From a virus (lineage: Duplodnaviria > Heunggongvirae > Uroviricota > Caudoviricetes), in the IMG/VR virus record IMGVR_UViG_646311924_000016: a stretch of 45,166 bases of DNA; one strand, given 5' to 3'. The notes under the pieces were generated by a model. It was not told where the DNA came from. It did not search any database and worked only from the letters and a program-made list of their open reading frames with translations. The position numbers and the translations under genes were made by a program. Shown here one piece after another: positions 31,856 to 31,980 of this stretch. Each line of letters starts with the position of its first letter. The first letter of the stretch is position 1.

Positions 31856-31980
31856 ATGTTAACTGCTGCCTGGTTAACATTTGCTGAAAAAGCCAGTTAA
31901 CATTTTTTTCGCACAACAAACTGAATAATAAAGATAAAAACCGAAAAAATGCCCGGGCAGCCAGTTAACATGTTAACTGG
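31856..31980. promoter_or_regulatory. cos-like region: four GTTAACAT motifs including a perfect 20-bp palindrome
   Basis: 'atgttaac' at 31856, 'ggttaacat' at 31872, 'agttaacat' at 31895, and palindrome 'ccagttaacatgttaactgg' at 31961-31980; lies between the HNH endonuclease and terS. Confidence 0.45.

Follow-up and report, generated by a model that had tools for sequence, protein, structure and literature searches.

Putative cos region of a lambdoid Escherichia coli prophage: a predicted HK97-type cleavage site beside an array of candidate small-terminase half-sites

Introduction

In phage lambda, the cos region consists of the nicking site cosN followed, on the terminase-gene side, by the gpNu1 R-sites of cosB, which stand in mixed orientation and have bent DNA between them. 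In phage HK97, where the small terminase subunit (TerS) is gp1, the large subunit (TerL) gp2 and the HNH endonuclease gp74, the cos end is a 10-nt 3' overhang, and TerS relies on one 15-bp T-tract site at +15..+29 and has no repeats (PMC11331095). In SPP1, TerS touches the DNA at multiple places on either side of the cut, according to a review that regards DNA binding by TerS as still unresolved (PMC9611059). The ends of phage fEg-Aba01 have been mapped by PhageTerm and by a heat/anneal restriction gel (PMC7354433).

The window analysed here is a 45-kb stretch of viral DNA in which the first-pass annotation had marked 31856-31980 as a candidate cos or terminase recognition region. The feature is a real element of an ordinary kind, a phage cos region. 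Comparison with related phages makes it probable that the whole interval between the HNH endonuclease gene and terS (31782-32070) is the cos of a lambdoid E. coli prophage, in which an HK97-type cosN is joined to a cosB-like array for TerS. A literature search for the cos of Stx phages 2851, BP-4795 and YYZ-2008, or for these sequences, found nothing relevant, and the searchable literature yielded no description of the predicted 10-nt overhang, the array of five sites, the dyad at the start codon or the concerted change of sites and TerS that are described below.

Gene neighbourhood and distribution

Open reading frames and Pfam assignments place the HNH endonuclease gene, terS and terL in this order on the minus strand, downstream of the lysis cassette. 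Positions relative to the cut are numbered from +1 at window position 32010 and rise toward terS. The HNH gene (32071..32436, minus strand; PF01844, E=5e-6) has its stop codon at -60..-62 from the predicted cut. The terS gene (31218..31781, minus strand; PF03592, Terminase_2, E=4.5e-8, 34.3 bits against a cutoff of 26.1) starts at +230, and terL (29560..31221, minus strand) encodes ATPase and nuclease domains (PF03354 and PF20441). The order HNH-terS-terL is also found in SP-016, STEC1585, fEg-Aba01 and Bcep176. A 75-aa DUF3950 ORF (32478-32705, plus strand), annotated as YlcI/YnfO family in one relative, separates the HNH gene from the lysis cassette.

Directly in front of terS is a leader (31782..31855, minus strand) that carries the Shine-Dalgarno sequence GGGAGGAG at 31785-31792 ahead of the GTG start codon. 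It is poorly conserved: identity to L097 and STEC1585, which with the window represent three E. coli lineages, is 50-59%, and 80% of its columns vary across 66 sequences.

Identity to 93 phage records is 90-98% across the 500 bp around the site; almost all of these records are E. coli Stx1a-, Stx2c- or Stx2a-converting phages. The intergenic region is matched in the records of YYZ-2008, 1717 and BP-4795, it is 100% identical in E. coli E2863 and SF26 102-1 (O111:H8), and phage 2851 has the same terL and terS as the window. The region is present in 1283 of 5426 complete E. coli genomes, and a single genome can have as many as 7 copies. The 93-94 phage records that match it all contain it internally: none has a physical end inside it, and none carries an annotated feature, such as cos, in the intergenic part. 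When the IMG/VR contig ends were checked against the predicted cut, no coincidence was found.

Predicted cleavage site

The noncoding DNA upstream of terS has a common layout, kept from Enterobacterales to Pseudomonas, Burkholderia and Acinetobacter, in which a G-run is followed after ~30 nt by CGATCGCCCTGGACACCGCGCCCCCTCTCACGCACAGAAAAAATTCC. Within it is a GC-rich core block on the minus strand, CGATCGCCCCGGACACCGCCCCCCGTCTCATGCAGAGAAAAAATTCC (31990..32036), which is noncoding and conserved from Enterobacterales to Acinetobacter. Twenty-one cos regions, including those of HK97, fEg-Aba01 and Bcep176, were aligned with MAFFT. In this alignment the ends of the three named phages occupy one set of columns, equivalent to window positions 32011-32020. 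The end of fEg-Aba01 is CGCCCCCCAT, which its record also annotates as a 10-nt 3' cohesive end; that of Bcep176 is CGCACGTTCC, repeated at both ends of its record; and that of HK97 is CGCCGCCAAA, the last 10 nt of a record whose ends read GAC CGCCGCCAAA / GTTTG. TerL of the window is 53% identical to that of fEg-Aba01, 58% to that of Bcep176 and 23% to HK97 gp2 (E=2e-12), and TerS is homologous in fEg-Aba01 and Bcep176. With slashes bounding the overhang, the core reads GGACAC/CGCCCCCCAT/CGCACGCACAAAAAAAATTCC in fEg-Aba01 and GGACAC/CGCCCCCCGT/CTCATGCAGAGAAAAAATTCC in the window.

By homology to these ends, cosN is predicted at 32011..32020 (minus strand), where cleavage would leave the 10-nt 3' cohesive end 5'-CGCCCCCCGT-3'. 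The cut thus predicted probably lies 31-40 nt to the right of the interval first reported; its position is drawn from phages of other genera, and what gives the homology argument its strength is the near identity of the 40 flanking nt to the corresponding sequence of a phage with experimentally mapped ends. The first-pass annotation had taken an HNH gene beside the terminase as the sign of an HK97-type cos region and had proposed a comparison with the cos sites of HK97-like phages; gene order, Pfam families and the aligned ends all agree with that reading. Gene order, TerL lineage and the homologous cut site point to HNH-assisted cos packaging of the HK97 type in the window phage. SPP1 packages by headful from a pac site, a mode that the annotation had set against cos; judging from the closest TerL and TerS relatives with known ends, the window phage would not do so, since relatives with a TerL 53-58% identical to its own have defined cohesive ends.

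The likeness to HK97 extends to the order HNH-cos-terS-terL, with a homologous TerL, and to the layout of cos itself, with a G-run ~40-50 nt upstream, GAC/CGC... at the left nick and an A/T-tract 10-30 nt downstream. In the window the upstream element is a G7 run on the minus strand (C7 on the plus strand; 32056..32062, -45..-51). A G-rich run fills the same columns in 21/21 aligned relatives, interrupted in several, and could be a cosQ-like element or a contact element for HNH or TerL. Downstream of the cut is the A-tract block AGAGAAAAAATTCC (31990..32003, minus strand; +8..+21), which is conserved whichever TerS variant is encoded. The two systems differ in that their HNH proteins have no pairwise similarity and that terS of the window starts only at +230, after five half-sites. 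The sequence of lambda cosN is absent from the whole window, and a search for the lambda-type cosN GGGCGGCGACCT with <=2 mismatches gave no match in or near the region.

In PPompW prophages (L005, 3275-4733; PPompW_132418), ISEc20, an IS110-family element, is inserted in the C7/G7 run. Beyond the insertion sequence lie tRNA genes and Q in place of the HNH and lysis genes. These prophages retain an intact cosN and half-site array but would need HNH in trans.

It is extremely improbable that terminase instead cleaves within 31856-31980, at the palindrome or the cluster of repeats. Nicking sites, lambda cosN for example, typically have two-fold symmetry, the palindrome adjoins the terminase genes, and the cluster occupies the HNH-terS gap. 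However, in all three relatives the aligned ends lie upstream of the palindrome by 31-40 nt and belong to a far more widely conserved block. In short-type relatives, moreover, the equivalent dyad overlaps the start codon of terS at +34..+47, and the motif differs between lineages in which the cosN block is nearly unchanged. The first-pass annotation had placed both cleavage and binding in this interval; it holds up as a candidate TerS binding site, whereas the cut is predicted at 32011-32020.

Half-site array and palindrome

The repeated motifs noticed earlier between the HNH gene and terS are indeed there, as five copies of the octamer GTTAACAT at four places inside 122 bp (31856-31977). On the plus strand they start at 31873, 31896 and 31964, and on the minus strand they occupy 31856-31863 and 31970-31977. 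The whole window contains 6 copies against 1.18 expected, a number reached in 0/100 shuffles, and the pro rata expectation for 122 bp is ~0.003. GTTAAC by itself is not enriched (11 in the whole window against 8.4 expected); the signal is therefore a local cluster of the longer motif.

Two of the five octamers form the palindrome. An inverted-repeat search found it perfect, as first described, over 22 bp rather than 20 bp, so that it ends 1 nt beyond the interval originally assigned to it. Its arms, GCCAGTTAACA and TGTTAACTGGC (31960..31981, +30..+51 from the cut, without strand), represent two head-to-head half-sites. Half-site 3, the 12-mer ATGTTAACTGGC (31892..31903, minus strand; +108..+119), is identical to each palindrome arm, which gives this 12-mer three exact occurrences. 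Half-site 4, ATGTTAACCAGG (31869..31880, minus strand; +131..+142), pairs with the inverted half-site 5, ATGTTAACTGCT (31856..31867, plus strand; +144..+155), and a second inverted pair with 12-nt arms (31852-63 and 31873-84, 9 nt between them) was found here. Counted as octamers, the direct copies start at +108 and +131 and the inverted copy covers +148..+155. A small ORF running from the ATG of the palindrome has 24 codons here against 5 in STEC1585 and was rejected as a candidate gene.

The palindrome and half-site 3 are separated by a spacer rich in T-tracts (31904..31959, minus strand), with T6, T5 and T3 ~9-10 nt apart and then A7. These T-tracts, which possibly produce an intrinsic bend, are kept in L097 and STEC1585 despite an identity of only 65-67%. 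It is T-tracts, not an IHF site, that lie between the repeats: the IHF consensus WATCAANNNNTTR had no match with <=1 mismatch in 31782-32070. A predicted nicking site followed at +30..+155 by five conserved half-sites that co-vary with TerS, as candidate binding repeats, would be a layout like that of lambda. The lambda system differs in its 12-nt 5' overhang, its IHF site I1 and its gpNu1-family TerS, a family to which the window TerS does not belong, and the window system depends on an HNH partner.

Elsewhere in the window, three GTTAA motifs lie within 21 bp at 40510-40530 (GTTAATTGTTAACTGGTTAAC), one of them matching the half-site TGTTAACTGG. The cluster belongs to the early region, where a possible 97-aa ORF spans it, and may be due to chance.

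Long- and short-type relatives

Relatives of terS were taken from viral contigs and, for each species, from a single genome. In most of them, here called short type, terS starts at +40, inside the dyad GTAAAC ATG TTAAC. This dyad overlaps the start codon (+34..+47) and sits exactly at the position of the window palindrome, which is thus its counterpart. A terS start ~40-50 nt past the cut, as in these relatives, is a further likeness to HK97. In the window lineage, or long type, an extra ~190 bp that carries three additional half-sites separates the dyad from terS.

The Leu codon of the dyad is TTA in 15/16 enterobacterial and 10/10 Pseudomonas/Burkholderiales relatives, against 0.9% and 2.8%, respectively, of the other Leu codons of terS. 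Such a bias suggests that the nucleotide sequence itself is constrained. Across relatives L006-L036, the N-terminal Leu (codon 2 or 3) is nearly always the rare TTA, and GC-rich Pseudomonas and Burkholderia are no exception. One relative (L025) has Phe instead of Leu (GTG TTT ACG) and so keeps a GTTTAC half-site at an amino-acid cost.

fEg-Aba01 and Bcep176 share the TerS/TerL lineage of the window, a similar cos core and GTTAA-type repeats between cut and terS. Between its mapped end and terS, fEg-Aba01 has three direct copies of AAGTTAAA, and Bcep176 has only the start-codon dyad. They differ from the window phage in host and in the sequence and number of the repeats, and neither has the 22-bp palindrome or the long spacer.

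Among the three E. coli lineages the half-sites keep common positions: +29/30, +39/40, +107/108, +131 and +144 (+154 in L097). TerS of L097 is 69% identical to that of the window (protein search) and TerS of STEC1585 74%. Compared with L097, the octamers are identical at 38/38 positions and the spacers at 59-73%. In L097 the 4-nt flanks read CACC in the two arms of the palindrome, a symmetrical change, and also in the +107 copy. Across 66 distinct long-type sequences, 9/38 octamer columns are variable, each in a single sequence, against 112/162 of the other columns from +30 to +229 (Fisher p = 6e-7, a descriptive value as the sequences are related). The minor-allele frequency in the octamers is ten times lower than in the surrounding columns. 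Absence of the motifs from relatives had been named earlier as an argument against the site; they are present, at conserved positions.

In STEC1585 all five half-sites read ATGTTTAT or ATGTTTAC (ATGTTTAY), not ATGTTAAC. The palindrome is still perfect (TATAAACA and TGTTTATA), and the direct copies have changed likewise. The concerted change is represented by this one complete sequence and by one partial sequence, L096.

These patterns bear on two other explanations of the repeats. One takes the extra copies as dead leftovers of duplicated terS 5' ends, with ATG TTA AC read as Met-Leu-Thr, that remained after terS was displaced. The octamer is the literal start of terS in relatives, and terS of the window itself begins with GTG CTG ACA, a degenerate copy of that start. 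Dead copies are nevertheless very improbable: the octamers are conserved while their surroundings diverge, all copies changed together in STEC1585, the spacing is kept across lineages, and the ORF starting in the palindrome is unconserved.

The other explanation, which is quite improbable as well, regards the inverted repeats as RNA hairpins in the leader of the late mRNA that regulate how terS is translated or how stable the transcript is. The predicted fold of the minus-strand RNA (+1 to +229; z = -2.4) pairs +126..+158 in a 12-bp stem and makes the palindrome a hairpin, and the arm changes in STEC1585 keep the pairing. Yet the direct copy at +108 changed alike, though arm-to-arm stems need no such change, and a zero-loop palindrome makes a poor hairpin. 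Some 75 nt separate the last repeat from the start of terS, and this stretch of leader is the least conserved part of the region. Short-type relatives, fEg-Aba01 and the island described below have direct repeats or a dyad only. A search of the region for Rfam families gave no match, apart from a sub-threshold chance match inside terS.

Small terminase and co-variation with the half-sites

PF03592 and the helix-turn-helix (HTH) fold assign TerS to the SF6/SPP1 G1P type. The AlphaFold2 model of its N-terminal domain (pLDDT 92-96) has helices at 19-25 and 33-41, of which residues 33-41 are the predicted recognition helix. The N-domain superposes on the DNA-binding domain of SF6 G1P, with the SF6 TerS structure 4zc3 as the top Foldseek match (TM 0.84, rmsd 1.6 A, probability 1.00); a PDB sequence search with TerS gave a sub-threshold result (E=0.34). 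An Escherichia albertii TerS (P0001) contains, in the low-confidence linker that joins the HTH to the C-terminal part, a tandem duplication of 15 residues (PRRREAAAIPQPDDK...).

Here the parallel with HK97 ends. It holds for TerL, HNH and cosN and fails for TerS: the window protein is unrelated to gp1 (BLASTP E=3.1), and the nonamer and single-site recognition mode of gp1 does not fit it.

STEC1585 and window TerS differ in the N-terminal domain at residues 19, 22, 24, 25, 30, 32 and 35. With the helix modelled at 33-41, the recognition helix includes residue 35, and residues 30 and 32 stand at its N-terminal end. Among 88 distinct cos-terS regions, KTAR-type TerS occurs with TTAAC sites (43 long, 11 short) and KSAR-type TerS with TTTAY sites (1 long and the partial L096, 32 short).

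A similar picture comes from the PICI-like islands L098 and L099 (1075-1215), which carry a D5_N/AAA_25 primase, small ORFs, a 162-aa TerS homolog and a capsid-like gene. They have the cosN core of the window, GGACACCGCCCCCCGTCTCAT, next to different direct repeats, AAAAGTTACAC x2. This arrangement suggests that the islands are satellites which use the cutting site of a helper together with a TerS and a site of their own. A constant cut site and repeats that track TerS are what a division of labour between cosN and cosB predicts.

A protein other than TerS could in principle occupy the half-sites, either a late-operon regulator at an operator or the HNH protein, with TerS placed on the A-tract at +8..+21. 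A perfect palindrome with repeated 12-mers resembles operators. The A-tract, which overlaps the position of the TerS site in HK97, is kept with every TerS type and could either be the main TerS contact or belong to TerL or HNH. The HNH protein, too, differs between the GTTAAC and GTTTAY lineages (87% identity). Against this explanation, the motif type tracks TerS residues in or beside the predicted recognition helix in both architectures, and an island with its own TerS, and with no HNH gene called in its 2.9-kb locus, has its own repeats beside the same cosN. The sites lie midway through the late transcription unit, and the promoter and terminator scan gave a single weak consensus match for each kind of element, which does not exceed the number in shuffles; the promoter match is on the non-coding strand. 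Placing TerS on the A-tract as in HK97 also fits poorly with its lack of relationship to gp1. Binding by another protein is thus unlikely, and the regulator-binding site offered as an alternative in the first-pass annotation gained no specific support. Co-variation among related sequences makes it likely, instead, that the array is functional and that TerS is its reader.

Discussion

The best explanation of the locus is a cos region with separate places for cutting and for recognition. The prophage group to which it belongs, which includes Stx1a- and Stx2c-converting phages, would use an HNH-assisted terminase of the HK97 type. TerL and HNH would nick the two strands 10 nt apart within cosN to give the 3' overhang, and packaging would proceed in the direction of falling window coordinates, toward terS. 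Just downstream of the cut, comparative evidence suggests that 31856-31981 (+30 to +155) acts as a cosB-like recognition array of five ATGTTAAC half-sites: a head-to-head pair, a T-tract spacer of ~60 bp, two direct copies and one inverted copy. The N-terminal HTH domains of oligomeric TerS might bind these half-sites, and bound TerS would anchor and orient terminase on its own DNA beside cosN. The T-tract spacer may supply the bend. In its working the arrangement would resemble both lambda cos, with its cosB repeats, and SPP1 pac, with its multiple G1P contacts.

A more specific model can be put forward tentatively, with somewhat less than even confidence. Here the locus would be a hybrid cos architecture of a kind not described before, in which a cosN of the HK97 type, cut by TerL and HNH, is served by a TerS of the SF6/SPP1 type and by an array of half-sites that can expand. 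A few changes in the HTH, with a concerted change of the sites from GTTAAC to GTTTAY, would retune recognition and leave cosN constant. If this is true, co-resident prophages, and satellites that encode a TerS, could share cutting machinery and still discriminate their own DNA. The putatively ancestral start-codon dyad could also let TerS repress its own synthesis.

The region is carried by Stx1a-converting, Stx2c-converting and some Stx2a-converting phages, a common prophage family in which this element has been uncharacterised. The predicted cut would allow the genome ends of the Stx-phage group to be corrected. The pairs KTAR/GTTAAC and KSAR/GTTTAY may offer a natural specificity pair for studying how small terminases of the SF6 type read DNA. 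Trans-packaging between O157 prophages with a common cos sequence has been proposed (PMC2669165). The locus will mainly interest packaging specialists and those who predict mobilisation among EHEC prophages: the cut site and the candidate recognition code together could help to predict which EHEC prophages, defective prophages and satellites each terminase would package.
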